Assembly: GCA_041656935.1 (NCBI GenBank) | Contig: JBBACQ010000004.1 | Coordinates: 8,557 to 72,556, forward strand | DNA from: Patescibacteria group bacterium | GTDB lineage: Bacteria; Patescibacteriota; Patescibacteriia; Patescibacteriales; UBA12465 | DNA: 64,000 bases | Direction of reading: 5' to 3' | In this document: piece after piece, positions 5,648 to 62,359 of the stretch | Position numbering within the stretch: position 1 is the stretch's first letter | How the letters are laid out: each line of letters begins with the position of its first letter | The notes under the pieces: model-generated | Databases searched by the model: none | What the model saw: only the letters and a program-made list of their open reading frames with translations | Told to the model about the DNA's origin: nothing | Position numbers and translations under genes: made by a program

Positions 5648-7147
5648 TTATTTGGAGAAATATTTACCAAAGTCGTCGTCGCTAATATTATTAATCTGAT
5701 TATTTTTATTTTTTTCCTCATCAGTTTTTATTTTTTTATCTTTCTCGACACCAGAAATCGAATCATCATCTGAAATTTCTATACGACTATTATCTTCTTC
5801 AGCTTCTTCATCTTCTGATCTCTCGCCTGCCTCAATCTCAGAATTTAAATCCTCTTCCAAAAATTCTACATCATTATTATTGTCACCATTATATTCTTCC
5901 CCTTTCTCATCCTCTATGTCATCATTCGAATTATCTTTGTTTTCTATCTCTTCTATATTATTTTCATCTTCGTCATTATTTTCATCTTCTTCAGAATTAT
6001 TTTCTAATTCTTCAAAAACTAGCGGGCTCTCCTCTTCTTTATAAAGATAATCGTTAGGGCTCTTGCTGGCAGACCTATTATGAATTGGGGTTGAAGAAAA
6101 AGGATTAGACAAAGTATTTTCATATTGCTCTTTAGAAACCATTATCTCTCTAGGTTTAGAACCATTGCTCGGACCAACCATCCCTAATTCCTCTAACATA
6201 TCTAAAATACTGGCCGCTCTAGAATAACCAATTCTCAATCTTCTTTGTAAAAAGGAAGTGGATGCCTTACCGCTAGACAAAACAATTTCTTTAGCCTCTT
6301 CTAACAATTCGTCTTCATCTCCCATTAAACCATCTAAACCAACTCCACCGATACCACTAACTTTTTGTCTCTCAGTTATTCCCTCTAAATAATCAGCGGT
6401 TCCATATTTTTCTTTTATATAAGAAACAATAGAGCTGATTTCTTCATCACTAACATAGGCTCCTTGTATTCTTTTTGGTTTAGATAATTCAGCGGTAGTA
6501 AAAAGCATATCTCCTTTACCTAACAATTTTTCAGCTCCCGAAGAATCTAAAATTGTTTTAGAATCTACCGCCGAAGCCACTGAGAAGGCAATTCTGGCTG
6601 GAGTGTTGGCCTTAATCAAACCAGTAATAACATCAACGCTGGGTCTTTGAGTCGCTAATATTAAATGAATACCAACCGCTCTAGACATTTGAGTTAATCT
6701 AATAACACTGCTTTCAATATCCTTAGAAGCCGAAACCATTAAGTCAGCCAACTCATCAATAACAAAAATAATATAAGGTATTTTTTCTTTTCCATTTTGA
6801 TTATAAGTTTGAATATTCTTCTTGCCCGCCCGATTTAACATTTCATAACGACGATCCATTTCGTTTAAACACCATCTTAAAGCATTGATAGTTTTGCTAA
6901 CTTCAGTAATAACTGGAGTTAGAAGATGAGGAATGCCATTATAGGTCGGAAGTTCTACTCTTTTAGGGTCAACTAATATAAAGCGTAAATCATCAGGATT
7001 GTTTTGATATAGTAAACTGACAATAATGGTATTTAAACAAACCGATTTTCCAGAATTAGTCGCTCCGGCCACTAATAAATGAGGCATCTTAGCAATGTCA
7101 TAGACTATATTTTTTCCAGAGACATCTTTTCCTAGGCCGCCATTAAA
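5648..7147 (-). CDS. ftsK: FtsK/SpoIIIE DNA translocase, C-terminal segment. Carries the RecA-like motor and winged-helix gamma domain, then a roughly 130-aa acidic tail. The frame is open upstream of the annotated Met back to 7147.
   Basis: In-frame upstream of MPHLL reads FNGGLGKDVSGKNIVYDIAK MPHLLVAGATNSGKS (Walker A). FVIDELADLM (Walker B). Gamma domain SFLQRRLRIGYSRAASILDMLEELG. Confidence 0.8.
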   Translation of the reverse strand, partial: FNGGLGKDVSGKNIVYDIAKMPHLLVAGATNSGKSVCLNTIIVSLLYQNNPDDLRFILVDPKRVELPTYNGIPHLLTPVITEVSKTINALRWCLNEMDRRYEMLNRAGKKNIQTYNQNGKEKIPYIIFVIDELADLMVSASKDIESSVIRLTQMSRAVGIHLILATQRPSVDVITGLIKANTPARIAFSVASAVDSKTILDSSGAEKLLGKGDMLFTTAELSKPKRIQGAYVSDEEISSIVSYIKEKYGTADYLEGITERQKVSGIGGVGLDGLMGDEDELLEEAKEIVLSSGKASTSFLQRRLRIGYSRAASILDMLEELGMVGPSNGSKPREIMVSKEQYENTLSNPFSSTPIHNRSASKSPNDYLYKEEESPLVFEELENNSEEDENNDEDENNIEEIENKDNSNDDIEDEKGEEYNGDNNNDVEFLEEDLNSEIEAGERSEDEEAEEDNSRIEISDDDSISGVEKDKKIKTDEEKNKNNQINNISDDDFGKYFSK

Positions 7148-8313
7148 TTAGTTTGTCTATTTTTGAAGTCTCTCTCTTCTAAAACTTCTCTTAAACCAAC
7201 AATAGCCTTAGTTTTGTTAGGGACCTCAATTCCAATTAAAGATTTGCCCGGTATTGGAGCTTCAATTCTAATCGGATGCGCCGCTAAAGCCAATGATAAA
7301 TCATTATTCAAGGCTGTTATTTTTGAGACCTTTATACCCTCTGAGGGTTTAAAAGTATATTGAGTTACAGTTGGACCAACATTAACTCCCCCCATTTCTA
7401 CTAAGATACCAAAATTCTCTAAGGTCCTTTGTATTATTAAAATATTTTTATCAATATCTCCACTAGTGGCCTTATTAATTTTATTGCTTAAAAGCTCCAA
7501 CGGTAAATCAATTTTAATTTTTTTAGTTTTCCAATTAACATTTTCTCTTAGGACTTCTTCTTTTTTCCCTAAATCCTCAGTTCTGTTATTAGAAAACCCT
7601 ATTTCTTTTTTAACAAATAAGACATCCTGATCTTCCGCTAAATTATCATCTTTATTTTTTTCATTTTTTATTTCCTCTTCATAATTATTTTGATTTTCAT
7701 CTTCGGTCGAATATGAATCTTCCTCCGAAATATCATTAATCTTAAAGAAATTAGAAATTGATCTAAATATTTGAAATAAAAAACTTTTTGACCCCACCAA
7801 ATGAGACAAAGTAACATTAAATAATAATATAAGCGACAGGGCTAAAATTGCTAAAATCACCACCAATCCTCCCCAAAAGCCCAAAGAGTTTTCTAAAAAA
7901 AGTGATAAGTAAAAACCTAAGTATCCCCCGCCCAGTCCTTCGCTGGCTTTAATTTTGGCAATATCATTTTTATAGAAAAAATGTAGTAATGATGAAATAA
8001 AGATAAAAAATAATGACAAACCAAAATAATTAGACTTCTTAGAAAAAAATTTATTCTTTTTATAAATAGCGATACTCAAAATGATCAATAAAAAAGGAAA
8101 AAGCCACTTACTCCAACCAAAAATTAAGGACAAAATATCATCTAAAAACAAACCAAAGCTACCAGAAAGAGAAAAAAGCGATAATAAACTCAGTAAACCA
8201 AAAACAAAAATCAACAAGGCAATAATGCTTGTTTTTATAATAATTTCCTGATTTCTATCATCTTTTAAATCAGGCTCTTGCTCATTATGGTCTTTTTGAC
8301 GTTTTCTCTTCAT
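7132..8313 (-). CDS. ftsK: FtsK N-terminal segment: polytopic membrane domain, linker and the start of the motor. It ends at a TAG that the downstream segment bypasses by a -1 shift.
   Basis: Multiple TM helices. Ends ..NRQTNLMAA*. The -1 frame continues LGKDVSGK.. without a stop. See findings. Confidence 0.7.
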   Translation of the reverse strand: MKRKRQKDHNEQEPDLKDDRNQEIIIKTSIIALLIFVFGLLSLLSLFSLSGSFGLFLDDILSLIFGWSKWLFPFLLIILSIAIYKKNKFFSKKSNYFGLSLFFIFISSLLHFFYKNDIAKIKASEGLGGGYLGFYLSLFLENSLGFWGGLVVILAILALSLILLFNVTLSHLVGSKSFLFQIFRSISNFFKINDISEEDSYSTEDENQNNYEEEIKNEKNKDDNLAEDQDVLFVKKEIGFSNNRTEDLGKKEEVLRENVNWKTKKIKIDLPLELLSNKINKATSGDIDKNILIIQRTLENFGILVEMGGVNVGPTVTQYTFKPSEGIKVSKITALNNDLSLALAAHPIRIEAPIPGKSLIGIEVPNKTKAIVGLREVLEERDFKNRQTNLMAA

Positions 8314-8364: not shown

Positions 8365-9267
8365 TTAGTTTATTATTTCTTCTATTCGTCTTAAATACTT
8401 GCTATCTATCTGAAACCAATCACCAGAACTTTGAATCGGATAATTATTGCCTTCAAAACGATGAAAATCTGATCCCCCAGTAGCAATTAGATTTAATTTA
8501 ATTGCTAAAAATTGGGCATGCATAATAGCTCCAATAGAATGATGGGGCGACAGAACTTCAATCCCATCAATCCCTAACTCTTTTAATTTTTCCGTCATAT
8601 TCCGACCAAACTTATTAAATTTACCAGGATGGCAAAAAACTAGTTGACCGCCAACTTTCTTTTTAATTTTAATCAGTCTTTCAGCGTTTATATAAGATTC
8701 GCTTAGAATACCAATTTTTTTATTAAAAAATAACTCTCCCAAAATATCCTCTTCTCTCAATGGCAAAATTAATTTACCACTAAAATTTTTTTTGCTCTTC
8801 CTTCGATTTTTAATATTCTTTAAAACTAGATTATAATTATGTTTTTTTTCTATTATCTTATCCCCTAAACGATTAACCGGGATATAATTCTTAAAAAGAG
8901 ATAAAAGATTTTCAATATCAATTTGGTAACCCCTTTTCTTTAATTTAGTTAAAATATTTTTTACCAAGAGAGCTCGACGATAACGAGCTGATTCTAAAAG
9001 ATCTTGCAACTCTTCATTTTTAGCATCAAAATTATACCACAAAAAATTTAATTTTCTTCTCTTGTATTTAACATAAATCTCTAAACCAGGAATAGTTTTA
9101 ATTTTATGCTTTTTAGCTTCCCTTTGAAATTCACCCAAGCCAATTGTGGTATTATGATCAGTTAAGGAGGCAACCCGCACCCCTCTTTTTTGGATAAGCT
9201 TTACTAATTCCTTGGGGGTTAAATAGCCATCAGAAAAATTAGAATGAAGTTGTAAGTCTATCAACAT
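8365..9267 (-). CDS. PHP-domain metal-dependent phosphoesterase.
   Basis: N-terminal IDLQLHSNFSDG..LTDHNT (PHP motifs I/II). Later ..FCHPG.. and GGSDFH. Confidence 0.65.
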   Translation of the reverse strand: MLIDLQLHSNFSDGYLTPKELVKLIQKRGVRVASLTDHNTTIGLGEFQREAKKHKIKTIPGLEIYVKYKRRKLNFLWYNFDAKNEELQDLLESARYRRALLVKNILTKLKKRGYQIDIENLLSLFKNYIPVNRLGDKIIEKKHNYNLVLKNIKNRRKSKKNFSGKLILPLREEDILGELFFNKKIGILSESYINAERLIKIKKKVGGQLVFCHPGKFNKFGRNMTEKLKELGIDGIEVLSPHHSIGAIMHAQFLAIKLNLIATGGSDFHRFEGNNYPIQSSGDWFQIDSKYLRRIEEIIN

Positions 9268-9270
9268 ATT

Positions 9271-11487
9271 TTATTTTATTTTAAGTTTGTTTTTAGTTTC
9301 TGCGATTAAAACTTCGGCTCGATCTGGTTTAGGATCATGTCTAAGAAGCCAAAAAACTGAAGTTCGAACAGCCGTCCAGTGATAATAAAGTTTGACTCTC
9401 TCTTTTAATCTAATATTATACTTAATCTTAGCATTTTTACAATAAGTTTCTATAAAGAAATCTTTAATTTTCTGAATATAACCTTTAGTATAATTATATC
9501 TAATTAGCTTATACTCTAATTGCTGAATAAAAGTCCCTAGATCTCGAGCAAAATCAGAAACACAAATATCGGTAAAATCAATCATAGCAATTTTTTGCCG
9601 ACCAATTTTTATAATATTCTCGGGATGAGCATCACCATGTATTAACCACCTTTTGGAAGATAACTCAAAAAAATCATCTTCTAAATCAATTAAAAAATCA
9701 TATATTTTTTGAATATCTTTCACATACTTATCATTGTATTTCTCTTCTATTTTCCTTAAAATATCACGATAACCGGGGACAACTGTTTTTATCCGATTAT
9801 TTTTTTTATTTAAATTTATAGAATTAGAAATCGGAGTTTTATGTAATTTAGCTAACCACTCAGCTGTTTTTTTAACTGTTTTTTCTATGTCCTTCTTATT
9901 ATTTTTCTTAATATAATGCAATAAACTTTCACCCTTAACTCCTCGATAAAAAGAAGCATTAAAATATTTAGAATAAAACATCGGTTTAGGCACTGTTAAG
10001 AATCCTCTAGAAAAACCACTATTCCATAAATAATTTAAGGTATCATAAACATTTTTTCGTGGTTCGCTAGAATGAGCCGTACAAAAAAAGGATAAGGCCT
10101 TGGTCTTCAGTTTCTTTGATTTTTCCGAAGAATAAGAGAAAAAGGTTTTGAACTCTAAAACAACGTGATAAGTACTTTCCCAAATATAATCTTTATGATA
10201 AATTATTTTTATTTTTTCTATCTTTTTAAAATCGGGATAAAATGGCAAAATTTTTCTATTAAACAAATCTAAAACATATTTATCACGTAATAATTTATTT
10301 ATTTTATTATTAGTATTTAATTTATTCCTAGAATAATAATTCCAATGCTTCGCCCAAACAGATTTCTTTATAGCTACAAAAATATTTTCTGATTTTATTT
10401 TCTCCGAATGAGAAGTGGAAAATTCTAAAGATCGAATGGACCGAATTAATTCATTAGCTCCTCTTTCTATTTCATCGGGGTTCCAAGCATACGGACCAAA
10501 ATTATGTTTAAAATCATTAGCGCTGGCCCACCAGAAGGTACAACTAGCCAATCCCCTCACCAAATGCCAACGTGACCAATTATAATTTTCATCTTTTCTG
10601 TATTTACTCCCAAGATTAATAGACATATTAGCTAATTTCCATAATTTCATATGAATTTCGTTCTTTTTATCATGCCACAAATGATAAGGTTGTTTTTCTC
10701 TTAAGTTTTTTTCGTTTGACTCCCAATTACTTTTTCTAATATTTATTTTTTCCGGATTTTTAAAACCAGCTATATATTTAGAAATTAAAGTTGTTTTGAT
10801 TTCTTTAATCGCTAAAACTTCTTCTAATTTCTTCCCTAAATCTTGATGTCTTAAACCATAAAGTTCGCCATCAGTTCCACTAATAATAACCTTTTTGTCA
10901 TGATTTTTGTTTTTTTCTAAAAATTTAATAATCTCATCGGGAACATAACAATTAGAAAATTTTCTCGACCGAAATATTACTTTTAAGCCACTATTTTTAT
11001 CTAAATAAACTTTTTCGGGATCCAGCTTTTTTTTATTTTGATAAGATATTTCATCTAATATCAACCAGCTATATCCAAGTTTTTTCACAATTTGAGCTGT
11101 CTCGGGACTATAAGCCATTTCCGGCAAAAAGAAGCCTTTAAGTTTAGCCTTAGGAAAATATTTTTTTAAAATTGTTTCATTTTCTTTTATTTGCCAAACG
11201 ATTTCATTTTCTTTTAATAAGGGAAGTAAAGCATGATAAGAAGCGGAACCGGTTAACTCAATCTGACCTTTATCAATTAAAACATTTATTCTCTCTATTA
11301 AATCAAGATATTTTAGTTCTACTAACCTAGAGACTAAACAAGCTGAAATATTAATAGTGAATTTAGAGTTTGGATTTTTTTCTAAAACTTCTATAATTCT
11401 CTTATAACTAAGATCACTTGCCTCTTTTATTTTATAGGCATCCGAGTTGGCGGGTTGATAACAATGTAAAAAATTTATCCACAACAT
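9271..11487 (-). CDS. Fusion protein: N-terminal GH57-family glycoside hydrolase domain plus C-terminal protein-kinase-like (APH/maltokinase-like) domain.
   Basis: Matches GH57 conserved regions: HCYQP, GQIELTG..YH, PEMAY, GTDGELYG, WWASANDF. Kinase Brenner motif HGDAHPENI and IDFTD near the C-terminus. Confidence 0.65.
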   Translation of the reverse strand: MLWINFLHCYQPANSDAYKIKEASDLSYKRIIEVLEKNPNSKFTINISACLVSRLVELKYLDLIERINVLIDKGQIELTGSASYHALLPLLKENEIVWQIKENETILKKYFPKAKLKGFFLPEMAYSPETAQIVKKLGYSWLILDEISYQNKKKLDPEKVYLDKNSGLKVIFRSRKFSNCYVPDEIIKFLEKNKNHDKKVIISGTDGELYGLRHQDLGKKLEEVLAIKEIKTTLISKYIAGFKNPEKINIRKSNWESNEKNLREKQPYHLWHDKKNEIHMKLWKLANMSINLGSKYRKDENYNWSRWHLVRGLASCTFWWASANDFKHNFGPYAWNPDEIERGANELIRSIRSLEFSTSHSEKIKSENIFVAIKKSVWAKHWNYYSRNKLNTNNKINKLLRDKYVLDLFNRKILPFYPDFKKIEKIKIIYHKDYIWESTYHVVLEFKTFFSYSSEKSKKLKTKALSFFCTAHSSEPRKNVYDTLNYLWNSGFSRGFLTVPKPMFYSKYFNASFYRGVKGESLLHYIKKNNKKDIEKTVKKTAEWLAKLHKTPISNSINLNKKNNRIKTVVPGYRDILRKIEEKYNDKYVKDIQKIYDFLIDLEDDFFELSSKRWLIHGDAHPENIIKIGRQKIAMIDFTDICVSDFARDLGTFIQQLEYKLIRYNYTKGYIQKIKDFFIETYCKNAKIKYNIRLKERVKLYYHWTAVRTSVFWLLRHDPKPDRAEVLIAETKNKLKIK

Positions 11488-11499
11488 AATAATTTAGAT

Positions 11500-12957
11500 T
11501 TAATTTTTGATAGCCCTCTTATATAATTTAATATATTTCTGGGCCGGAATTTCCCAGCTACTTGATTTACGCATAGCTCTAACAATTAATTCCGACCAAT
11601 TTTTTTTATATTTATAATTTTCTAAAGCCCTAATTATCGCCATTAAAAAAGAAAATTCATCTTCATGTTTAAAAGTAAAACCGGTGCCTTTGTTAGTAGT
11701 CGGGTTAAAATTAGACACCGTATCATAGAGACCACCGATATCTCGGACAATTGGGATACAACCATAACGCATAGCAATCATTTGATTTATTCCACAGGGT
11801 TCATAATTAGACGGTAAAATAAAAAAATCAGAACTAGCATATAATAAAGTTTCCTTATTTTGATCAAAGGGAATCCACAACATTTTTTTAGGATGTTTTT
11901 TATGCATCTTTTTTAAATTTTTTATGTATTCAGCATCACCGTCTCCCATAAAAATAATTTGAACATCCAGTTTCAAAAAATAAGGTAATAATTTTAAAAT
12001 AATATCGAAGCCTTTTTGGTGAGCAATTCTAGAAGTCGAACAAAAGAGAGGAATATCAGCCTCCACAGTAAAACCAAATTTTTTCTGGAGATATTTTTTG
12101 TTTTCAGCTTTTAAATTAAAATTATCGAAACCATATTGTTTAAATAAACCACTGTCTTTTTGGGGGTTATAGGAGTTATAATCAATTCCATTAATAATCC
12201 CAAATAAACGATCCTCTCTATTCTTTAAAATTCTATGAAGATCTTGACCAAACTTCTTAGTCATAATCTCATCGCGATATCTTTCACTCACCGTATTAAT
12301 AATATCAGCTGACAAAATAGCTCTCTTGGCAAAGTTAATATTAACAATATCTGGGTTATCTAATAAAGGAATATTTTTTCTTCCATAATCTTTTTTGTTT
12401 AGAGGAACACTATACCAAGCTCGACTCATCTGAAAGGCTAAATTATGGATAGTAAAGATAATTTTGGCCTTTCCTAAATTCTTGGTATAACGAAATTTAT
12501 TTTTAATAAAATAAGGAATTAATCCAGTATGCCAATCATGACAATGGATAATATCAGGCTGATGGTCTAATAAATTCAGAAGCTTTAAAGAGGCAACATT
12601 AAAAACCAAAAATCTAATATTATCTTTTACCGAAATATAAATTTTTTTAGATTTAGAAAAATGTTCCTTACTTTCAACAAAATAAACCGGCAAACCATCT
12701 ATTAATTGCCCCTTCCAAAAATTAACCTTAACGGAATTAGCCGAATCGACTACTACATTAACATCTTTATAAATTAGCTTTAAATTATGCTTATCCTTAT
12801 CGATTAATTTCCCGTAGAGTGGAGTTATAACCGAAACCTGATGGCCTAAACGAAAAGAAGCCTTCGGTAAACTACGAGTAACATCACCTAAACCACCCGA
12901 CTTTGAGAAAGGTGAAACTTCAGAAGCAAAATGTACTATCTTTAATTTTTTGGCCAT
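11500..12957 (-). CDS. glgA: Glycogen (starch) synthase, GT5.
   Basis: N-terminal KIVHFASEVSPFSKSGGLGDV (E-x-P-x-x-K-[ST]-GGL-[GA]-DV signature). GT-B C-terminal half. Confidence 0.85.
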   Translation of the reverse strand: MAKKLKIVHFASEVSPFSKSGGLGDVTRSLPKASFRLGHQVSVITPLYGKLIDKDKHNLKLIYKDVNVVVDSANSVKVNFWKGQLIDGLPVYFVESKEHFSKSKKIYISVKDNIRFLVFNVASLKLLNLLDHQPDIIHCHDWHTGLIPYFIKNKFRYTKNLGKAKIIFTIHNLAFQMSRAWYSVPLNKKDYGRKNIPLLDNPDIVNINFAKRAILSADIINTVSERYRDEIMTKKFGQDLHRILKNREDRLFGIINGIDYNSYNPQKDSGLFKQYGFDNFNLKAENKKYLQKKFGFTVEADIPLFCSTSRIAHQKGFDIILKLLPYFLKLDVQIIFMGDGDAEYIKNLKKMHKKHPKKMLWIPFDQNKETLLYASSDFFILPSNYEPCGINQMIAMRYGCIPIVRDIGGLYDTVSNFNPTTNKGTGFTFKHEDEFSFLMAIIRALENYKYKKNWSELIVRAMRKSSSWEIPAQKYIKLYKRAIKN

Positions 12958-32480: not shown

Positions 32481-33335
32481 TTATCTAACAGAAGAATTTC
32501 TTCTGTTTTTTTCCAGTGCTTTAGCGATTAAGTAGGGGTCCACCTTTGAAGGTGTTTGGGCCGGAGATTTTCGGCATCCTCGGCAATATAAGTAACCAGC
32601 TGAATGAGCGAACCACTCTTTTTCCTCGCCAACCTTTTTTACTACTTCCAAAACCTCTGGGACATCAGCTCTGGCATTGTTTTTGACCAGCACTCCGAGA
32701 TTATTTCCGTCCACATAGATGACGGCTTCATATTTTCCACTCTTAAGAAGTTTATTTCTGGCCGAAAAAGCTAGGTCTTCTTTTATCACAATAGCAGTTT
32801 TACCTACCGAAATAATAGAAGAATAAAAGCTCTTTTTATCCTCTTGCTTTCTTTTGTTTAAGAGGAACATCCCGTCCAGAATTTCGAACATTCTTCGGCA
32901 AACAATCTCATCGTTGTTTTTGTGGAAAGATTGGAGTGACCGTAAGGCGAATGACAAGGACAAAAAAGGAATTTCTCCCTTTGGATAATCTTGATGATCC
33001 TCCAAGTCAACCATAGAACCGGAATCATTCCGGTCAACGAAGATAACCAAATTCCTAAGAATTTCCTTGGTTTCCTCACCACCATATTTCTGAACTATTT
33101 CCTTAAAACAAGAGTGGACCTTACCACTCCGATCTCTTCGGCCTTTGATACCATATCCCCCGGCATTAATATCCAGGGCTAAATCATCAAATTTAATACC
33201 ACGACCATCCCAAGAAGCGGGAACAAAATCTATCGGAGTTTCTTTTTTAGTTATAAATCTCAAAGCAAACCAAACCGACACCACCGCATCGATATCAACC
33301 GACACATGAGTCAGAATTCTTTTGACTTCTTTCAT
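32481..33335 (-). CDS. Hypothetical protein, tentatively a degenerate DHH-like phosphoesterase. G+C higher than neighbours.
   Basis: N-terminal THVSVDIDAVVS resembles DHH motif I. A later EDHQD could be a degenerate DHH motif. Weak evidence. Confidence 0.35.
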   Translation of the reverse strand: MKEVKRILTHVSVDIDAVVSVWFALRFITKKETPIDFVPASWDGRGIKFDDLALDINAGGYGIKGRRDRSGKVHSCFKEIVQKYGGEETKEILRNLVIFVDRNDSGSMVDLEDHQDYPKGEIPFLSLSFALRSLQSFHKNNDEIVCRRMFEILDGMFLLNKRKQEDKKSFYSSIISVGKTAIVIKEDLAFSARNKLLKSGKYEAVIYVDGNNLGVLVKNNARADVPEVLEVVKKVGEEKEWFAHSAGYLYCRGCRKSPAQTPSKVDPYLIAKALEKNRRNSSVR

Positions 33336-34674: not shown

Positions 34675-35583
34675 TTATTTAATATTATCTAAACACTCTT
34701 CGTATTTTTCTATAAAAACAGATCTTCTTTCTTCTAAAAATAGTTTAATAATATTATCTTCTAATAAAACTCCTGACGATTTTCCAACCTGATCTTTTAA
34801 TTTTTTTGGCATTATTCTAAGTTGAATTTTTTTAGAAAATTTTTCAAGAAAATCTAGGAAACCGAAAGAAAAATTATTCTCTCGATTTTTCTCTTCTTCT
34901 AAAAAAGATAAATTTTGATCGTCTAAGTTTAAATTCGGCAAATATTTTTTTACCCAATAATTAGCTTTATAAAATTTACTAAAAATATTTTTATAATTAT
35001 AAATAACCTCTATCCCAGCTAACCAATAAACGGAATAAAGGTCTTTGGCGTTATAAGAATAATTTTCTAAATCGAGATTATCATTACTGATATAAAAACT
35101 TAAGCAAATTTTATTTCTTTTGGTTTTTTTATTAGGCCTCAAACCTAATGATTTAGCTAAAAAAGTGCAAAAGAATCTGGTTAACCAAATTCTTCGACTA
35201 GAAGTAATTATAAAAAAATCAATATCACTTTTTCCTCTCAAATTATGATCACCAATAATATTAGAAACTGCTATCCCCTGAATAAACGGCCACAACGAAA
35301 TAAGTCGGGAAAATCTCTTGGCTTTTTTTATTTTCTGATTAAAATAATTCAAAGTTTTAAATCTTTCTTCAACTATTGATTCTCTACCTTTAAAAAAATA
35401 AAATCCTTTTTTATTTTCAACCTTATCTGATAAATTTTCCAATTCGTCGATAATATCGCTTAGGTTAGTAGAATAATTTACATATTTAAAAATTTCATAG
35501 GTAGTTAGGGGGTGAGAAAATAAATCAAACCAGATGATGGTTTTTAATATTTCTTCTTTTAAGTTTTTATTTTCATTATTCAT
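34675..35583 (-). CDS. Hypothetical protein.
   Basis: ORF only. KSDIDFFIIT could indicate a nucleotidyltransferase-like fold; weak. Confidence 0.4.
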   Translation of the reverse strand: MNNENKNLKEEILKTIIWFDLFSHPLTTYEIFKYVNYSTNLSDIIDELENLSDKVENKKGFYFFKGRESIVEERFKTLNYFNQKIKKAKRFSRLISLWPFIQGIAVSNIIGDHNLRGKSDIDFFIITSSRRIWLTRFFCTFLAKSLGLRPNKKTKRNKICLSFYISNDNLDLENYSYNAKDLYSVYWLAGIEVIYNYKNIFSKFYKANYWVKKYLPNLNLDDQNLSFLEEEKNRENNFSFGFLDFLEKFSKKIQLRIMPKKLKDQVGKSSGVLLEDNIIKLFLEERRSVFIEKYEECLDNIK

Positions 35584-37252: not shown

Positions 37253-40200
37253 TTACACATAAGTAACGCTCGCTACCATATCATTTTCGTCTTTAAAGCG
37301 CATAATTCGGACTCCTTGAGTATCACGACCCAATTCATTAACTGTTTTATAAGGCAAACGAATAACCTGACCTTTATCAGAGATAATTATTAAATCCTTG
37401 CCCTCCATGGTATCTTTGTTTATAACAAAAGCATTACTAATTTTACCAGTCTTAGTGGTCACTTTAGCTGTTCGAATACCACTACCACCTCGACCCTGAA
37501 CCTTATACAAATCCAAATCCGTCCTCTTACCATAACCCTGATCCATAATGGTCAAAATTTGATAATTCCGTTTTACTCCTTTCTCAACCTTGATAATTCC
37601 CATTCCAACAACAATATCATCTTTCTTTAATTTAATACCTCGAACACCGGAAGCATTCCGGCCCATATCACGCACCTCTTTTTCAGAAAATCTTATCGCT
37701 TGGCCATTAGCAGTTATTAAACTAATATGATCAAGCCCGGAAGTTGGTTTTGACCAAATCAATTTATCATCATTCTTTATTTTTATCGCTATTAAACCAC
37801 TGCGACGAACATTAGAGAAAGAATCAATTTTAACTTTTTTAACCAAGCCTTTTTCTGTAGCGAAAAATAAATAATTATAACCGGCAATTTTATCTAGCGG
37901 TAAGATAGAAGTAATTTTTTCTCCACCAATTAACTGCAAGAAATTAACAATCGGAGTTCCTTTAGCCGTACGAGAGGCTTGCGGTATTTCATGAGCCTTT
38001 AATTGGAATACTCGCCCCTTAGTAGTAAAGAATAAAATATCATTATGGGTTTGAGTAATAAACATAAAATCAACCGAATCTTCTTCTTTGGTTGTTAAAC
38101 CGATAACACCCTTACCCCCACGAGCTTGAACCTTAAAAGTATCAGGATCTAATCGCTTAATATACCCATCCCGAGTCATCATAATCATAGTTTCTTCATT
38201 GGGTATTAAATCTTCAATATTAAAATTCTTAACACCATGAGCTACTACTTGAGTTCGACGCTCGTCCCCAAATTTTTCTCCCAATTCAGCAATCTCAGTT
38301 TTAATAATATTTCTAATTTTAGTTTTAGAAGCTAAAATTGCCTCTAACTCTTTAATCAATTTTAATTTTTCTTTTAATTCATCTTCAATTTTAATACGTT
38401 CCAAATTAGCCAAACTCTGCAATCTCATTTCCAAAATAGCCACCGCCTGTCTTTCGGACAACTTAAATCTCTTTATTAAACTTTCCTTAGCTACGTCTTT
38501 ATCTTTTGAAGCTTTAATAACTTTAATAACTTCGTCAATATTTTTTAAAGCAATCATTAAACCTTCCAAAATATGAGCTCTGTCCTTGGCCTTATTTAAT
38601 TCAAATTCAGTCCGACGATAAATTACATCTTGACGATGTTTAATATATTCCTCTAAAACCATTTTTAAAGTTAATACTTTAGGTTGAATTCCATCAATTA
38701 AGGCTAAAATATTAACATGGAAGGTGCTTTGTAAAGCAGTATTTTTGTACAAGCTATTTAATATTTTTTTCGGATAAGAATCTTTTTTCAAATCTAAAAC
38801 AATGCGAACGCCCTCTTTATCAGACTCGTCTCGTAAACCTCTAACTCCATCTAACTTTTTATCTTTTACTAAATCAGCAATTTTTTCTACCAAAGTCGCC
38901 TTATTAACCTGATAAGGAAGCTCGGTAATAATTATTTGGAAATTTCCATTTTTCTCCTCTTTAATATCAGCCCTTCCTCGACAAACAATTCCACCCTTAC
39001 CGGTAGCATAGGCATTCAAAATATCTTTTTTATCATAAATAATTCCACCGGTTGGGAAATCAGGCCCTTTGACATGCTCCATTAAATCCTCCACCGTAGA
39101 GTCTGGTTGGTCAATTAATAAATTTATTGCTCCTAATAATTCTTTTAGATTATGAGGCGGAATATTAGTGGACATACCGACCGCAATTCCCATCCCTCCG
39201 TTTAGGAGTAAATTAGGTAATTTAGCCGGTAAAACTTGCGGTTCTTTTTGTGAGCCATCATAATTAGGAATAAAATTAACGGTATCTTTATCAATGTCAA
39301 ATAATAATTCTTCTGTAATACTAGCTAATTTTGCTTCAGTATTATGATTTATAAAACCATTAGCTACAAAAGAGTGACAAGTGCTCCCTACTTTAATAGA
39401 ATAAACATTTTCTTTTTCGACCTGAGTTTCAACTAGCTTCACCTGATTAAAAAAGTAATGATTTTCTAATAAGTAATCGACCATTTTCAAGTCAGAAGAA
39501 TTTAAAATGCTCTTTAATTTACAATAATTTTTTCTTAAGCTATTATAACGATCAAAATTATTTTTAACTATAAAACTATTTTTATAATTTAATCTTAAAT
39601 AATTGTTTAAAAATGGAATAAAATCATTATGGCTTAAACGAGTAGTATTAATCTCCGATATCTTAGATAAAATCTCTCTTTTACGTTGAGAAAAAAAGTT
39701 AATATTTTTTTGAAAATTTACAATACTATCAACTCCCGAGATTATTAATTTATAACAAGCATTTCTCTTATCCTGATAAGGCGAAGTGGTAACTACACCA
39801 AAATTTAATAAAACTGTTTTCAGCTGATTGATAAGTTTTTTGCTTTTAGAATTATAGTTTAATTCAATTGATTTTCCGCCGTGTCTTTGGTCTTTTTTAA
39901 AAGAAACCGAACCATCACCCTCAAATAAACCTCGTAAAAAAGAACTTATTACTGCTCGGCTAGACATTAAAACTGAAAAAGGAATTTCTTTTTTATCAGA
40001 TAATTTAGTAGCCAAGCCAATTTCTTGTAAAAATTCCACAATATTTTTTTCATAAATACAAAGCTCCGGACAATTACCCTTCAGAACTCTTTCATATAAT
40101 TTAACTCCCGGAAATAACTGAGAAATTATATTTCGAACCTTGCCATAAAAATCTTTATCTGAATTACAGAAGAAAAATTTGTTTTGGTGGAAAGACCCTT

Positions 40201-41212
40201 CTGATACTAAAGCTCCTAAAAGAAAAGCTAGGTCTTTATTCATTTTTTTAGGTAGGGTAATTTTTTTACTCTTAGGGCTTTCTAAAGGAAAAAACTTTTC
40301 TAAACTTAAATCATTTTTAGAAAATAGCGAAGCCGAACGGCTTAAGGGCAAGAAATCATTTTTATTGATATTTTCTAAAGCTTTCCAATAAAAATAGGGC
40401 TGACCAAATTCATTTAAACCCCATAATAATAACGGATGATTAAATGAACCCCGAATTTCATAGCCCTGCTCAGTGGTTATTTTTATAATTGAATGCTTAC
40501 CAGAATCGAAAAATTTAGTAGCTGGCTTAACCTTCCCTTTATAATTTAAAATATTTATTTTTATTTTATCTCCACTTTTAGGGGCAAGATTTTTTATTTC
40601 CACTATCCCTTTATCGGTTAAAAGTAGAGTATCACCAGAAACACAATATCTCATCGCGGCGGCATTATCACCATCCATCGAACCAAAGTTTCCCTGACCA
40701 CGAACCAAAGGATAACGCATTGAGAAATCCTGAGCCATACGAACCATAGAATCATAAACAGCACTATCACCATGCGGATGGTATTTACCTAAAACTTCTC
40801 CCACCACAGTAGCTGACTTACGAAATTTAGCGCTAGCCTTTAAACCAATATCCCACATAGCATACAAAATACGACGATGAACTGGTTTCATACCATCACG
40901 GACGTCAGGCAAGGCGCGAGAAACAATAACGCTCATGGCGTAATCTAAATAAGAAGAACTCATCTCTTCGCTAATAGACTGATTTTGTACTAAACCGTAT
41001 TCGGTTTGACGACGACCATTACCATTAACTGCTGAATCAACCACGGCTTCATCACCATTAAGATCAGCCTCAATAACTACCGCATCTTCTTTAATAACGG
41101 GAGCTTTTTTTTCAATTATATCTTTCTTAACAACCTTTTTGTTTTTAGAAGTCTCTGCGCTGGAAGAAACTTTTTTGGGTGTTTTATCTTTTTTGTCTTT
41201 TTCTTTTTTCAT
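37253..41212 (-). CDS. gyrA: DNA gyrase subunit A interrupted by an in-frame intein. Also carries a roughly 70-aa Lys-rich N-terminal extension.
   Basis: [32 protein letters not shown]. Active-site AAMRY followed by an intein. After the intein, TEAKL... resumes the GyrA sequence. C-terminal beta-pinwheel repeats. Confidence 0.9.
39341..40645 (-). mobile_element. Intein (435 aa) with a LAGLIDADG homing-endonuclease domain, inserted immediately after the catalytic Tyr of GyrA.
   Basis: Begins Cys (AAMRY|CVSGDTLLL) and ends ..VANGFINHN|T. LAGLIDADG-like blocks [14 protein letters not shown] and [15 protein letters not shown]. Coordinates verified codon by codon. Confidence 0.8.
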
Positions 41213-43323: not shown

Positions 43324-44511
43324 TTAGCGATATGACCGCCACTCATCCCATTTGAGAAATTTAGATTGGCTTGATTTTTCAACTAAGCCTAGGTCTAAAA
43401 TTTCCGTAGTTCTTTCTCCGTGCCCATAGACGATTGTCATGACGGGCCCTGATTTTAAACGTGCTTTGATCCTCTGGCGAGCTGGAATCACCATCCCAAC
43501 CCACTTGATTCCTGAAAATGCATCAATCTGAACCCTTTCAGAAGACCTTAAGGTGTTTTTTGGTGCTATATACTTTTCCGGTACGAAAATTGTAACATCT
43601 TCGCTACGGGTATTGTATAGGTTGACCAATGTTGTTTTGCCGGCAACCTCGCTTCCCTTAGCAAAAAACAAGGGATTGAAAGTTCCTTCATCGAAAATAA
43701 AGCTTCCATTTCTGACAATCAAGGTAACTGGAATTTCCGGAGAAATCCCCGTTGGAAGTTTCACTCTGGCAATGAAATCATAGGCTCCATTTTTGGGCAT
43801 ACGAGAAGCCAAAACTTTGATTTCATCTTTGCCACCGGGTGCTAGGGCAAACGAAACGCCCAATTCCTCGCTGTAAACAACGCATTCGTAATTAACTTCC
43901 GTACTTACTTTTAAAGTAAGACTTGGTATTCCGAGATCCTCGTCAGTGATAGTTGCCCTGAACAAAGGTCTTTCCCCAGCGAACTGAGAATAATCTTTGT
44001 CCTTTTCGATGACCGGCTCCAGCAAGAAAACCAAATTTCTTTTGATCTTCTTACCATCAAGTTCAAACTCGGCAAAACAGGTCACGTTTTTTGCACGTGA
44101 AGTGTTAATAACGAGATCAAACAAACCAGCCTCGATCATGGCGGTCGTTTTATCGGCTCCTTCGTCCATGTCGTTCATAAAGTTCAACAAGGGCAAAAGA
44201 TCTCCCGTACGAAACGAGAAGTCGAAATCAGCGATGAGTGCATTCGATTGTGGAAAGAATTCCACTTTCGACACAATACTCCCCCAATTACCCGAAAGAT
44301 CCATTTTTTTATACTCGGCCGGTGTGAGTTTCAAATTCTGAGCGAACTCAGATTTGTTCTCAATAATAATCTTGGCCAACATTGGGGCCTTGACCCCGGC
44401 TTTGTAGTCATTAAATGACTTGGCATCTTTGGTTTCCTGGGCAAAGCCAGAAAAAGATACTGCAACAAAAGATACTGCAACAATAACCAAACTAATTAAT
44501 ACTTTCCTCAT
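43324..44511 (-). CDS. Secreted hypothetical protein (395 aa) with an N-terminal signal peptide. G+C markedly above genome background.
   Basis: MRKVLISLVIVAVSFVAVSFSGFAQE signal-like N-terminus. No recognised domain. Confidence 0.55.
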   Translation of the reverse strand: MRKVLISLVIVAVSFVAVSFSGFAQETKDAKSFNDYKAGVKAPMLAKIIIENKSEFAQNLKLTPAEYKKMDLSGNWGSIVSKVEFFPQSNALIADFDFSFRTGDLLPLLNFMNDMDEGADKTTAMIEAGLFDLVINTSRAKNVTCFAEFELDGKKIKRNLVFLLEPVIEKDKDYSQFAGERPLFRATITDEDLGIPSLTLKVSTEVNYECVVYSEELGVSFALAPGGKDEIKVLASRMPKNGAYDFIARVKLPTGISPEIPVTLIVRNGSFIFDEGTFNPLFFAKGSEVAGKTTLVNLYNTRSEDVTIFVPEKYIAPKNTLRSSERVQIDAFSGIKWVGMVIPARQRIKARLKSGPVMTIVYGHGERTTEILDLGLVEKSSQSKFLKWDEWRSYR

Positions 44512-44549
44512 GATTTGTTTCCTCCATTTAAATTTAATTTTTAATAATT

Positions 44550-44599
44550 TTAATTGTTAAGCTAAACAACATCTAAATATTAGCTAACTTAACAATTAA
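44550..44599. promoter_or_regulatory. 50-nt imperfect palindrome in the 5' leader of the 43324 gene.
   Basis: TTAATTGTTAAGCTAA-n18-TTAGCTAACTTAACAATTAA. A second copy lies at 45432-45482. Confidence 0.5.
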
Positions 44600-44643
44600 A
44601 ATATTAATAATGCATGTAAAAGTACTTTTTGTTTTAATGTAGA

Positions 44644-44672
44644 ATTATAGCATATATATTTTTTTTTGTCAA
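44644..44672 (-). promoter_or_regulatory. Consensus sigma70 promoter for the 43324 gene.
   Basis: Minus strand TTGACA, 17 nt, TATAAT. Plus-strand tgtcaa at 44667-44672 and attata at 44644-44649. GGAGG RBS 9 nt before ATG. Confidence 0.6.
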
Positions 44673-44837
44673 GGCTTTTCCCAAATAACCAAATTACTGC
44701 TGTTTTAAGGGCTAAAATAGGGCTAAAGAGAACAAATCTAATAAAAACTTAAAATATAAAATAATGAATAAACTATTTTAAAAAATAATAATTTTAAAAC
44801 AATTACTCTGAAAACATCCTCCCATTAACCAGACAAA

Positions 44838-44866
44838 TAAAAAAAGCAGAAGTTATTCTGCTTTTA
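44838..44866 (-). terminator. Intrinsic terminator after the 44884 gene.
   Basis: aagcagaa-gtta-ttctgctt with A-run/T-run. The 29-nt sequence is identical to that at 45683-45712. Confidence 0.65.
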
Positions 44867-44883
44867 GACTGTTTGGGCGGAGA

Positions 44884-45402
44884 CTAAAAGTCTCCCAACA
44901 TGTCCTCGAACATTGTCTCGAGGTCATCAAAGGAAAAACTACTACTTCCACCTTTTTTCTTGGTCTTCGACTTTGGCTTATCCGAAGAAGCGATTGCTCC
45001 TTCAGTTTTTTTGGCCTCAGCTTCAGCCGTTTTTTTCTTTTGTTGGTTTAATTGCCAATATAAATTGGCAACTCTCTTTTTCTCGGCTTCTCCAGCCTTA
45101 ATCAGAGAGTCCTGAATTCTTTTGCTTTCAATATCGGCCCTTTGAAGATCGCCAATGTCGTTTTTAAGACCATTGATAACTCCATCTGTTTCAATAAACT
45201 TATCGACATGAGCGTCCAAACGATCTGAGTTCAGGTTTATTTTCTTATTTAATAACGAGTCATTCCGATACAAAGCTGTATCAGCCTTATCAAGACGATA
45301 AACCTCTTGCTTGACATTTTTCTTGCCACTTGAAAATCCTATTATCACTACCAGCAAAAAAACAACGGACACTACGGCCCCAATAATCAGATTTTTGTTC
45401 AT
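44884..45402 (-). CDS. Hypothetical single-pass membrane protein with a coiled-coil ectodomain and Lys-rich acidic tail (172 aa).
   Basis: N-terminal TM IIGAVVSVVFLLVVIIGF. No recognised domain. Confidence 0.5.
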   Translation of the reverse strand: MNKNLIIGAVVSVVFLLVVIIGFSSGKKNVKQEVYRLDKADTALYRNDSLLNKKINLNSDRLDAHVDKFIETDGVINGLKNDIGDLQRADIESKRIQDSLIKAGEAEKKRVANLYWQLNQQKKKTAEAEAKKTEGAIASSDKPKSKTKKKGGSSSFSFDDLETMFEDMLGDF

Positions 45403-45431
45403 CTTATTTTAATTTTAAAGGTTATAAAAAT

Positions 45432-45482
45432 TTAATTGTTAAACTAAACAATATCTAAAATATTAGCTAGTTTAACAATTAA
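45432..45482. promoter_or_regulatory. Second copy of the leader palindrome.
   Basis: TTAATTGTTAAACTAA-n15-TTAGCTAGTTTAACAATTAA. Confidence 0.5.
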
Positions 45483-45527
45483 AAATTTTAACCACCTTGG
45501 TAAAGATCTAAATAATTTTAATAGGTA

Positions 45528-45556
45528 ATTTTAACATATAAAAAAATATTTGTCAA
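45528..45556 (-). promoter_or_regulatory. Sigma70 promoter for the 44884 gene.
   Basis: Minus strand TTGACA, 17 nt, TAAAAT. Confidence 0.55.
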
Positions 45557-45684
45557 TAGTGCATAAATACCAATAAAAACAAGCTTTTTTATCTATTCCT
45601 CAAATTAATAGAAAATTTGTTTTTTGAAAAAAGATTAATCGAAAAGAGCAAAGCGAAGTCGTTTTTAGCCTAAAAAGAGAAAAA

Positions 45685-45712
45685 TAAAAAAAGCAGAAGT
45701 TATTCTGCTTAT
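45685..45712 (-). terminator. Intrinsic terminator after the 45732 gene. Identical to the 44838 copy.
   Basis: aagcagaa-gtta-ttctgctt. Confidence 0.65.
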
Positions 45713-45731
45713 AATTTGTCAAAAAAGAACT

Positions 45732-46283
45732 TTATCTGTCTTTTTTATAAAAGCGTTTCGGCCACCAGGGCGAAGCAGTTGGTGCTTTTTTCACGGGCAG
45801 ATTTTTAGAATTAGAATCTTCAACAGAAACCTCTTCAAAAAACCTTTCTGATACATCAGGCACAATTGGTTTTTCAATAACCTCTTTTTGATTATTTTTC
45901 CCAAGCTCTTTTTCCAAAGCCAAAATTTTTCGGTTCATTTTGCGATAAAGAGAAGCCTGCTCCTTCTCTATTTTTTCCAGCTTCTCCAGTACGACACTAA
46001 ATATCGTATCATGCTGATTCTTAGAAAAATTTAATTCCTCTACTTCTTTTTTAAAGGAATTTATTTTTTCCTCTAAATCGAAGTGGGAACCCCCGACTTC
46101 ATTTCTTAACTCAAACCTGAAATCTTGATTTTCTTTTTCGACCTCAGCTTTAACTCCTCCAATTTGAGAGCTTACGCTACCTGTCAACTTTGAAAAACCA
46201 ATTATTATGGCGATAGTTATCACCAAAATTCCACCAACAATTACCAGCACCAACGTTTTCCCCTTTTTTTCTCCTTCCGACAT
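45732..46283 (-). CDS. Hypothetical single-pass membrane protein with a coiled-coil region (183 aa).
   Basis: TM LVLVIVGGILVITIAIIIGF. Coiled-coil heptads. Confidence 0.5.
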   Translation of the reverse strand: MSEGEKKGKTLVLVIVGGILVITIAIIIGFSKLTGSVSSQIGGVKAEVEKENQDFRFELRNEVGGSHFDLEEKINSFKKEVEELNFSKNQHDTIFSVVLEKLEKIEKEQASLYRKMNRKILALEKELGKNNQKEVIEKPIVPDVSERFFEEVSVEDSNSKNLPVKKAPTASPWWPKRFYKKDR

Positions 46284-46332
46284 AATTCCTCCTATTTAAA
46301 ATTGTTAAAAAAACTAATAATAATGATTTTAG

Positions 46333-46361
46333 ACATTAATACATTTTAAAAAATAAGTCAA
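46333..46361 (-). promoter_or_regulatory. Candidate promoter for the 45732 gene, divergent from the next promoter.
   Basis: Minus strand TTGACT, 17 nt, TAATGT. Confidence 0.4.
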
Positions 46362-46371
46362 TAGCTACCCC

Positions 46372-46400
46372 TTGACACAATTAATTAAATATGCTATAAT
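46372..46400 (+). promoter_or_regulatory. Consensus sigma70 promoter for the 46513 gene.
   Basis: TTGACA, 17 nt, TATAAT. About 105-nt leader. Confidence 0.6.
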
Positions 46401-46512
46401 TAAGAATCGTAATAATCGTACCTTTAAAAAGATTAAAATTTAACGAGAAGATTAAAAAGTTCTTTTTTTAATTTTTTAGTTAAATTTTAATTAACCTATA
46501 AAAAATCAAGAA

Positions 46513-47058
46513 ATGGAAACATACGAACTGAAACAGTTGATAAGAAAAGACGGAGAGGTAATCGGAGCAGAATTCCAAAACGGACAGAAGTTAATGATCT
46601 CCCAGTGGGACCATAGCACCCTGGCCGAATTCGAAAACGTAAGTTTTCGTACTCCGGTAAAAGAGGGTAAATTTTTACAATTCGTGAATTCTCCCTTAAC
46701 CCTGAAGCCTGACGGCAATATTTGTCAGATACCTTCATATTGGAGGTACGGAGTGAAAATTGGTGGTCAAATCATTACCAGAACATTTCGCTTCTCTTGT
46801 GACGAAGGAAGTAAAAAAATAAATCAACTTCCCTTCGGCACAGATGTTGTCGGAAGGGCCAAAATTTGCCTTTCCACCAACAAAAAAACTGGAGAAAAGC
46901 GAGTGATAGTGGATTATTTCATCTACAGCGACCAAAAAGTGGTTGCCCAAAATGAAGTAAAAATCGGAGGAAAAACCAAGCCCTCCACCATCTGGACCGC
47001 ACCCATCCCCAAAACCGAAAGCAACATCGTTGTAAATAAGGTTGAACCCAAAAAATAG
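46513..47058 (+). CDS. Hypothetical protein (181 aa) with no signal peptide. G+C above background.
   Basis: ORF with an internal VKIGG repeat. No recognised domain. Confidence 0.5.
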   Translation: METYELKQLIRKDGEVIGAEFQNGQKLMISQWDHSTLAEFENVSFRTPVKEGKFLQFVNSPLTLKPDGNICQIPSYWRYGVKIGGQIITRTFRFSCDEGSKKINQLPFGTDVVGRAKICLSTNKKTGEKRVIVDYFIYSDQKVVAQNEVKIGGKTKPSTIWTAPIPKTESNIVVNKVEPKK

Positions 47059-61963: not shown

Positions 61964-62359
61964 ATAATTTTTTATTAAATTTAATAATATATCTAACTTA
62001 TTATACTAAACTAAAGAGCTTTTTCAAAATTTTGTAAAAATTTTGTAAAGGCCAAGTAGAAACGTCCCATCTAGTTAATTATTAAGGGTTACTAATCTCG
62101 TATCTATATTATACCATATTTTAAAAAATATGTCAAAAAAAATTAATCATTTAACCTATTTAATAATCTTCTTTTTAGTTAATAAATTGGTTTTTTAAAC
62201 CATCATCCTTAATATCAAATTATACATATTAAAAAACAATAATCCAATTCTTTATTTAACTAAAAATATGAAAAATTCCCTATCAACCCACAAATAAAAA
62301 AATTTATGAATTAAATAAGAAAGGAAAGGTTTGATATAATCGCCCCTTTCCTTTTAACC

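Follow-up and report, generated by a model that had tools for sequence, protein, structure and literature searches.

In the lnpABCD lacto-N-biose pathway, the APH-fold sugar kinase NahK is encoded beside a glycosidase/phosphorylase partner. A fusion of a glucan enzyme to a kinase is found in TreS-Mak, the partners of which are split in some organisms, and the kinase of which is believed to drive a reversible sugar conversion (PMC11046441). It is an open question how sugars enter the metabolism of bacteria of the Candidate Phyla Radiation (CPR), in which genomes are tiny and upper glycolysis is patchy (PMC7304191). Here we analyzed a stretch of 64,000 nucleotides (nt) from a Patescibacteria group bacterium (contig JBBACQ010000004.1, positions 8,557 to 72,556; hereafter the window), in which a GH57 glycoside hydrolase is fused to an APH-fold kinase. 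An earlier note, made from the sequence alone, had placed the fused gene 12 nt downstream of glgA and 3 nt upstream of a PHP phosphoesterase gene, and both the arrangement and its short gaps were confirmed when the coordinates were verified. We conclude that this is a genuine "Rosetta-stone" fusion within a conserved alpha-glucan module. Full-text literature searches returned no description of a GH57-kinase fusion, of the gene cluster, or of a maltokinase in Patescibacteria, and searches on CPR glycogen metabolism returned nothing specific. They agree with the earlier note, which knew of no described fusion of this kind; the protein itself is public as the identical NCBI entry MFA5644283.1, labelled "MAG: phosphotransferase [Patescibacteria group bacterium]".

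A GH57-kinase fusion in a conserved gene module

The fused gene and its parts are as follows (aa, amino acids):

9271..11487, reverse strand: fused GH57-kinase gene, 738 aa plus stop (open reading frame (ORF), Pfam, orthologues, AlphaFold2)
10342..11487, reverse strand: GH57 domain, aa 1-382 (Pfam PF03065, Foldseek, PDB profile search)
11119..11121, reverse strand: E123, predicted catalytic nucleophile in conserved sequence region (CSR) 3, FLPEMA (aligned with E123 of 1k1w; invariant in 43 family members)
10870..10872, reverse strand: D206, predicted acid/base catalyst in CSR-4, GTDGELYGLR (aligned with D214 of 1k1w; invariant in 43 homologues)
10309..10341, reverse strand: linker NYYSRNKLNTN, aa 383-393, 11 aa (junction comparison, dip in model confidence (pLDDT))
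9274..10308, reverse strand: APH/choline-kinase-fold kinase domain, aa 394-738, 345 aa (PF01636, homologue alignment, model, Foldseek)
9613..9639, reverse strand: kinase catalytic loop HGDAHPENI, aa 617-625, with H617, D619 and N624 (H, G, D, H and N invariant in 61 homologues)
9568..9582, reverse strand: kinase metal-binding motif IDFTD, aa 636-640, with D637 and D640 (invariant I243, D244 and D247 in the numbering of the kinase homologue alignment)

A domain scan with hidden Markov models (HMMs), which the earlier note had proposed as a check, found both domains above their curated Pfam cut-offs: Glyco_hydro_57 at aa 22-248 (E = 4.6e-29) and APH (PF01636) at aa 472-654 (E = 1.1e-12). All five GH57 CSRs were located, namely HCYQP (CSR-1), GQIELT (CSR-2), FLPEMA (CSR-3), GTDGELYGLR (CSR-4) and ASCTFWWAS (CSR-5), and the key residues of HGDAHPENI and IDFTD are invariant in 18 fused orthologues and 61 kinase homologues. 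The motifs are therefore those that had been read from the sequence, but the division of the protein is not. The note had assigned the N-terminal ~430 aa to GH57 and the C-terminal ~260 aa to a kinase-like domain, whereas the boundary falls at about aa 383-393, with GH57 ending at ~382, and what follows is a complete kinase of 345 aa that aligns over its full length with a standalone homologue of 340 aa (43% identity, E = 2e-105). The AlphaFold2 model of the whole protein has a mean pLDDT of 94.7 and a pTM of 0.72, and that of the kinase half alone has a pLDDT of 93.4 and a pTM of 0.90; in the whole model pLDDT falls to 70-81 at aa 381-400, the region of the linker. No signal-peptide-like hydrophobic segment was seen at the N-terminus when the sequence was judged by eye, which is consistent with a cytoplasmic enzyme.

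To place the fusion among its relatives, GTDB species representatives were scanned. At least 196 species carry a relative of the kinase, and the locus counts given here rest on the best 80 loci, in which ORFs were called and classified with purpose-built HMMs. The GH57-kinase fusion was present in 8 of the 80 loci, each from a different GTDB species representative, and full-length fused proteins formed 18 clusters (39-74% identity) from independent assemblies. Since the fusion recurs in both sets, it is not an assembly artifact. The fused junctions keep the reading frame, and their linkers have 8-12 residues. A comparison with the junctions of split relatives revealed that the linker in the window consists of the former C-terminus of GH57 plus the intergenic spacer, and that the ancestral start methionine of the kinase is now an asparagine, a substitution found throughout the window's group; the fused loci L009 and L010 retain the methionine (…KINMNKINKL…). 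Among the split relatives, L011, L014 and L017 have a GH57 stop codon 2 nt ahead of the kinase ATG, in a different frame.

The history of the fusion was analyzed with bootstrapped neighbor-joining trees on the concatenated GH57 and kinase halves (100 replicates). One fused clade contained the window's group, L012 and L009/L010 (bootstrap 78%), and a separate fused clade contained L020, L021 and L024 (bootstrap 100%); monophyly of all fused forms appeared in 1 of the 100 replicates and was rejected. A first neighbor-joining tree had placed the fused L009/L010 as sister to the split L011/L014/L017, but this grouping had a bootstrap of 8% and was rejected. From these values we claim at least two fused lineages in the clade, rather than four. 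A more distant fused lineage, the third (P0017/P0018, 39% identity), likewise comes directly after GlgA. When 1.84 billion cluster representatives were searched exhaustively, 106 members of the kinase family were found at E ≤ 1e-30, and 2 of the 150 matches listed were kinases fused to GH57. One apparent GlgA-GH57 fusion of 906 aa (L072:931-3651) was discarded as an artifact, since it arose from masked letters (N) that had been translated as X.

The other genes of the module in the window are:

11500..12957, reverse strand: glgA, GT5 ADP-glucose-type glycogen/starch synthase, 485 aa, first gene of the module (TIGR02095, Glyco_transf_5)
8365..9267, reverse strand: PHP-family phosphoesterase, 300 aa, TrpH/YciV-like, probable accessory member of the module (PF02811, E = 5e-14)

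The glgA product matched TIGR02095 with E = 4e-140 (467.6 bits against a cut-off of 328) and Glyco_transf_5 with E = 3.6e-61, so that it has the character of the GT5 glycogen synthase of the classical GlgC-GlgA pathway. Pfam annotation of the proteins of the 64-kb window revealed no GlgC, GlgB, GlgP, GlgE, TreS, MalQ or PGM. In NCBIfam the PHP protein came closest to 3',5'-nucleoside bisphosphate phosphatase and to RNase RNM, and fell short of the cut-off for each.

Relatives come from metagenome-assembled genomes of Falkowbacteria, Parcubacteria and Patescibacteria, and the organism of the window is itself Falkowbacteria-like. Long contigs with the module include CAWFCE010000002.1 (1.27 Mb), JBAZKQ010000001.1 (809 kb), JBMNFW010000001.1 (740 kb) and CAYYDR010000001.1 (678 kb). 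The order GlgA, GH57, kinase, with GH57 separate or fused, was found in all 69 loci with enough upstream flank; in 61 of them GH57 and kinase are separate genes of ~390 and ~340 aa. PHP lies directly downstream of the kinase in 49 of 76 loci, and the median intergenic gaps in the module are 8-10 nt. Protein searches likewise returned standalone GH57 homologues of 405-430 aa, ~50% identical to the N-terminal half, and hundreds of standalone kinases of ~340 aa, up to 72% identical. A split relative with the same synteny, seen in three independent assemblies, has a GH57 gene (385 aa) and a kinase gene (344 aa) with 14 nt between them. The two neighbouring genes often overlap, by 8 nt in one further lineage. 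The shared synteny runs through pilin, RecA, PyrH, MscL, RuvC, GlgA, GH57, kinase, PHP, FtsK and Mur ligase.

Distant relatives of the kinase remain beside GlgA or GH57 despite an altered gene order: GlgA, GH57, APH, aldo-keto reductase, PHP in L089; GH57, APH and a 188-aa ORF in L088; GH57, APH, APH2, GlgA in L090 and L091; and GlgA, APH in L092. Because the two genes have fused and because the kinase stays with GlgA or GH57 in rearranged clusters, the linkage is very probably functional and not merely frozen synteny. The earlier note had supposed that the glucan-active and kinase parts work together; universal adjacency, recurrent fusion and a linkage that survives changes of gene order strongly back this, and very probably they do. 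We conclude that glgA, GH57, the APH-fold kinase and often PHP form a genuine conserved alpha-glucan module of three to four genes, typical of Falkowbacteria-like Patescibacteria.

Nature of the two halves

The model of the GH57 half consists of a (beta/alpha)7 barrel followed by a helical bundle, with helices at aa 277-389. When the whole model was submitted to Foldseek, the top 24 matches were all GH57 structures. The best match of the GH57 half was the 4-alpha-glucanotransferase of T. litoralis (1k1w/1k1x, E = 5e-16), with GH57 branching enzymes second, and a profile of the GH57 family searched against the PDB gave the same two kinds of protein (1k1w, 2.7e-20; TK1436, 3.9e-17). The features that define GH57, i.e., five CSRs, a Glu nucleophile, an Asp proton donor and a barrel with a bundle, are all present. 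Applied to this protein, the published CSR logo gave a hybrid: CSR-1 reads HxxQP, CSR-3 and CSR-4 are branching-enzyme-like, and CSR-5 matches no described specificity.

The T. litoralis enzyme is collinear with the window's protein over aa 5-254, its nucleophile has the same residue number, and the spacing from nucleophile to acid/base is similar (83 residues here, 91 in 1K1W). However, identity is only 13-18%. Position 23 of the logo, in CSR-4, is Leu in branching enzymes and Lys in 4-alpha-glucanotransferases (PMC6037648), and is Leu here. Furthermore, enzymes of the T. litoralis type are ~650-670 aa long and carry a C-terminal beta-sandwich domain, whereas the GH57 part here ends at ~aa 382, its standalone homologues have 385-410 aa, and the kinase occupies the place of the beta-sandwich.

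A branching enzyme was considered as well, since such enzymes (TK1436, TT1467, PH1386, AmyC) are the second-best structural matches, share Leu 23 and the CSR-4 pattern D-x-E-L-Y/F-G, and have LPECAY in CSR-3 where this protein has LPEMAY; a location next to glgA would also suit one. On the other hand, CSR-1 is HxxQP and not of the branching-enzyme type, the alignment is fragmented, and insertions of ~60 aa (N-terminal) and ~90 aa are missing here. In TK1436 the nucleophile (E183, from the alignment) and the acid/base, which we take to be D354, are ~171 residues apart, as against 83 here. GH57 branching enzymes have three domains and ~520 aa, with a flexible loop of 17-22 aa and strands beta5-beta6 between CSR-III and CSR-IV (PMC9291813). 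With a spacing of only 83 residues, neither that loop nor beta5-beta6 can be present, and in view of this absence and of the missing N-terminal insertion of ~60 aa the branching-enzyme assignment was rejected. The GH57 half is therefore a minimal, presumably cytoplasmic GH57 enzyme with intact catalytic residues, and it most resembles the core of a glucanotransferase or amylase.

The kinase half has the marks of the APH/eukaryotic-like kinase superfamily: an HxDxxxxN loop, a downstream metal-binding Asp and a bilobal fold. Its neighbours in Foldseek were PsiK, APH(9), APH(2'')-IVa, ethanolamine and choline kinases, LicA and homoserine kinase; the matches to APH and choline kinases had a probability of 1.00, with TM-scores of 0.45-0.62 at 10-18% identity. 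Several of these nearest kinases act on sugar hydroxyls of aminoglycosides. The profile of the kinase family retrieved only APH(2'') from the PDB (E = 2.5e-5). APH(2'')-IVa, APH(9)-Ia, PsiK and the choline/ethanolamine kinases are thus the closest solved folds, and they share the catalytic loop and the metal-binding Asp with the window's kinase, but the latter has a divergent N-lobe with three long strands and an invariant AHSxEPR motif, and its genomic context is wholly different. D645, R648, D649, Q655, Q656, Y682 and R697 are invariant as well.

The earlier note had drawn an analogy with the TreS-Mak-GlgE route, in which the kinase would be a maltokinase (Mak/Pep2, EC 2.7.1.175). This identification was not supported. 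Pfam and NCBIfam gave no Mak_N_cap or Mak match on the kinase half, the family profile retrieved no maltokinase chain from the PDB even at E ≤ 10, and no Mak, NahK or MTR kinase was among the top 50 Foldseek matches. Neither TreS nor GlgE was found in the 64-kb window or among those recurrent neighbours in the 80 loci that were numerous enough to reach the top clusters.

How the pair may act

Our preferred reading, to which we give an even chance, is that in this alpha-glucan module the kinase uses ATP to phosphorylate a sugar that GH57 releases or uses. The GH57 half, in the cytoplasm, would be a minimal retaining alpha-glucan hydrolase or 4-alpha-glucanotransferase that attacks either maltodextrins or the alpha-1,4-glucan product of GlgA, and would free glucose, maltose or a short maltooligosaccharide as a small reducing sugar. 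The kinase joined to it would spend ATP on that sugar, trapping it and pulling a reversible transfer reaction, as TreS-Mak does with maltose and MalQ plus glucokinase with glucose. Through fusion or a tight complex, the sugar would be channelled from one active site to the other. PHP may act on the phosphorylated product or on a nucleotide by-product, which is the weakest step of the proposal. In CPR bacteria a recognizable gluco- or hexokinase is reported to be absent from nearly all lineages, although divergent substitutes are not excluded (PMC7304191), and it is this scarcity that makes the role of a sugar kinase attractive.

Several points weigh against this reading. The strict partner, GlgA, is a synthetic and not a degradative enzyme, which suits synthesis at least as well as breakdown. 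RuvC adjoins glgA as constantly as PHP adjoins the kinase, so that adjacency alone is weak evidence and the argument stands on the fusions and the rearranged clusters. The substrate of the kinase cannot be read from its sequence or fold, the best TM-scores being ~0.5-0.6 at 10-18% identity. There is no invariant Lys in the third strand of the N-lobe, where the canonical beta3 ATP-binding Lys would be; the invariant candidates for this Lys and for the Glu of the alphaC-equivalent helix that pairs with it are K432, H472 and E475. What the data show is that both enzymes are intact, that they are encoded side by side or as a single chain, and that in the loci with enough flank they always adjoin glycogen synthase; the phosphorylation mechanism is inferred.

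An alternative, which takes the analogy of the earlier note at its word, is a synthetic route like that of GlgE, in which the kinase makes an anomeric sugar-1-phosphate (e.g., maltose-1-phosphate) and GH57 uses it as an activated donor to lengthen or remodel the glucan beside GlgA. The strict partner of the pair is indeed a synthase, a second GT5 synthase belongs to the cluster of many lineages, and GH57 enzymes are retaining, as is GlgE. The anomeric sugar kinases Mak, NahK and MTR kinase are members of the APH superfamily. For Mak, membership in the APH superfamily is documented (PMC11046441), but the window's kinase shows no affinity to Mak in sequence or structure beyond the shared fold. 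Neither glgE nor treS is in the window, the source of maltose would be left unexplained, and no GH57 enzyme is known to use glycosyl phosphates; we consider this route unlikely.

A different role for PHP is conceivable if the target of the kinase is the alpha-glucan itself, as polymer or as oligosaccharide chains, and PHP takes the phosphate off again, GH57 being tethered to work on phosphorylated, loosened chains. Such a cycle, which we regard as quite unlikely, would control solubility or accessibility in the manner of GWD and SEX4 in plant starch or laforin in animal glycogen. Kinase and phosphoesterase are both linked to GlgA/GH57, and PHP, besides its frequent place downstream of the kinase, is kept past the gene inserted in L089; the nearest kinase folds phosphorylate hydroxyls of pseudo-oligosaccharides, the aminoglycosides. 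Furthermore, the cluster shows no branching enzyme, and the insertions typical of such enzymes are missing from the GH57 half, so that the glucan may be poorly soluble. However, PHP is closest to nucleotide bisphosphate phosphatase and RNase AM and not to sugar phosphatases, it is not next to the kinase in about a third of the loci, and there is no carbohydrate-binding module. The glucan kinases that we know of are dikinases of a different fold. If the cycle were true, it would be a bacterial phosphorylation-dephosphorylation system built from unrelated folds and functionally analogous to GWD/SEX4 or laforin.

It is very unlikely that the APH-fold domain is a regulatory protein kinase that phosphorylates GlgA, GH57 or another protein and so switches glucan metabolism. 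Some APH-fold proteins do act on peptides or proteins; the lanthipeptide kinases TvaE and LxmK are among the fold neighbours, and a Ser/Thr kinase of the YihE/RdoA type is a weak NCBIfam match of the paralogue in L090. Nevertheless, the top neighbours in fold and sequence are small-molecule kinases, and a 1:1 fusion with an enzyme is seen more typically where metabolites are channelled. It is barely credible, and largely refuted, that the kinase is an unrelated one for resistance to aminoglycosides or xenobiotics that merely neighbours glycogen genes in a compact genome, or that an assembly frameshift produced the fusion: the database label "aminoglycoside phosphotransferase", a frameshift in ftsK of this assembly and a generally rigid synteny in which RuvC, too, is always adjacent would speak for it, but independent assemblies contain the fusion in 18 clusters and in 8 species, its in-frame linker is conserved, the linkage to GlgA/GH57 is kept in the rearranged clusters of distant relatives, and the family is vertically inherited and confined to these lineages.

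Surrounding genes and comparison with known systems

In other lineages the module has further carbohydrate genes nearby: a second GT5 (33 loci), a PGI-like SIS protein (17), a GT4 (9) and a GDE_C/GH100-like glucosidase (7). The second GT5 is a starch-synthase-type GlgA paralogue (KVGGLADVV) that lies a few genes downstream of the kinase in loci within L025-L085 (e.g., L027:7973-9391) and is missing at that position in the window's clade. A conserved 188-aa ORF with a Walker-A-like FEGAELSGKS lies just after the kinase or PHP in L002 (10235-10801) and in L031, L037, L040-L042, L044, L046, L052, L066, L068, L070, L074, L084, L087 and L088; it is not in the window. It had no Pfam or NCBIfam match, and its profile matched the dNK-like P-loop kinase YorR only weakly and uninformatively (2axp, E = 0.009); the ORF may encode a second kinase of the module. 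In L090 (2112-4188) and L091, tandem APH paralogues follow GH57 and precede GlgA, and among P0312, P0324, P0325, P0328, P0337 and P0340 there are proteins of 654-687 aa with two kinase stretches, which suggests that APH-APH fusions also exist. The gene between kinase and PHP in the distant cluster of L089 (3774-4586) codes for a DkgB-like aldo-keto reductase, a hint that the module handles a free reducing sugar or aldehyde.

The window has ~30% GC, with nearly every gene on one strand, and Pfam annotation showed the remainder to be housekeeping genes. Promoter-like sites numbered 50 (40.9±6.7 expected) and terminator-like sites 5 (3.9±1.9 expected), counts that are uninformative on co-transcription. 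The best sigma-70-like match of the region, at 8349-8322 on the reverse strand (TTGATA, 16 nt, TG-TATAAT; 11/12), falls within the 51 nt that separate the PHP stop from the ftsK start and may mark the end of the glgA-GH57/kinase-PHP unit, although the overall promoter count is not above chance. The ftsK gene is broken by a 1-nt frameshift (window 7088-7135, reverse strand) into ORFs 7132..8313 and 5648..7087, with ...NLMAA and a stop in one frame and LGKDVSGK...MPHLLVAGATNSGKS in another. Relatives have one intact FtsK of 810-880 aa; the split is either an assembly error or a pseudogene, and calls for caution on indels in this contig.

Elsewhere in the window, the GyrA gene (37253-41212, reverse strand, 1319 aa) contains an intein with a LAGLIDADG homing endonuclease (Intein_splicing, aa 198-624; LAGLIDADG_3, aa 422-504). 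A 1009-aa protein encoded at 52688-55717 on the forward strand has two T2SSE (type II/IV secretion ATPase) stretches and looks like a tandem or duplicated pilus/secretion ATPase. ORFs of 168-543 aa with no Pfam match at E ≤ 1e-5 are found at 43324-47058 (four consecutive), 61457-63991, 32481-33335, 34675-35583 and 51675-52667. Three clustered tRNA genes (Arg-TCG, Met-CAT and Lys-CTT) lie at 2499-2935 on the forward strand, and Rfam revealed no other family in the window.

The kinase belongs to an uncharacterized family of about 100 clusters at 50% identity that is tied to glycogen synthase and to a minimal GH57 enzyme, and the GH57 half defines a subgroup outside the published specificity fingerprints. 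The GH57-kinase pair is a clonable candidate that could account for the sugar phosphorylation missing in these bacteria or could carry out a new reaction of storage glucan, and the fused protein is a ready construct that carries both putative activities and possible channelling.

Among described systems, MalQ (amylomaltase) with glucokinase, which serves the recycling of maltodextrin and glycogen, follows the scheme proposed here, in which a glycan enzyme frees a sugar and a dedicated kinase phosphorylates it, but the families are GH77 and ROK and the two enzymes are not fused. NahK differs in that its partner is of GH112 and is not fused to it. In TreS-Mak (TreS-Pep2, of the GlgE pathway), as here, an enzyme of an alpha-glucan family is combined with an ATP-dependent kinase of the APH superfamily, fused or split depending on the organism. 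The differences are that the glycosidase of the window is GH57 and not GH13, that its kinase is not detectably Mak (no Mak_N_cap, and negative profile and fold searches), and that the conserved partner is GlgA and not GlgE. The GH57-kinase module would work most like TreS-Mak, yet it is not a member of that system, and it extends the principle of a glucan enzyme coupled to a kinase to an unrelated pair of families.

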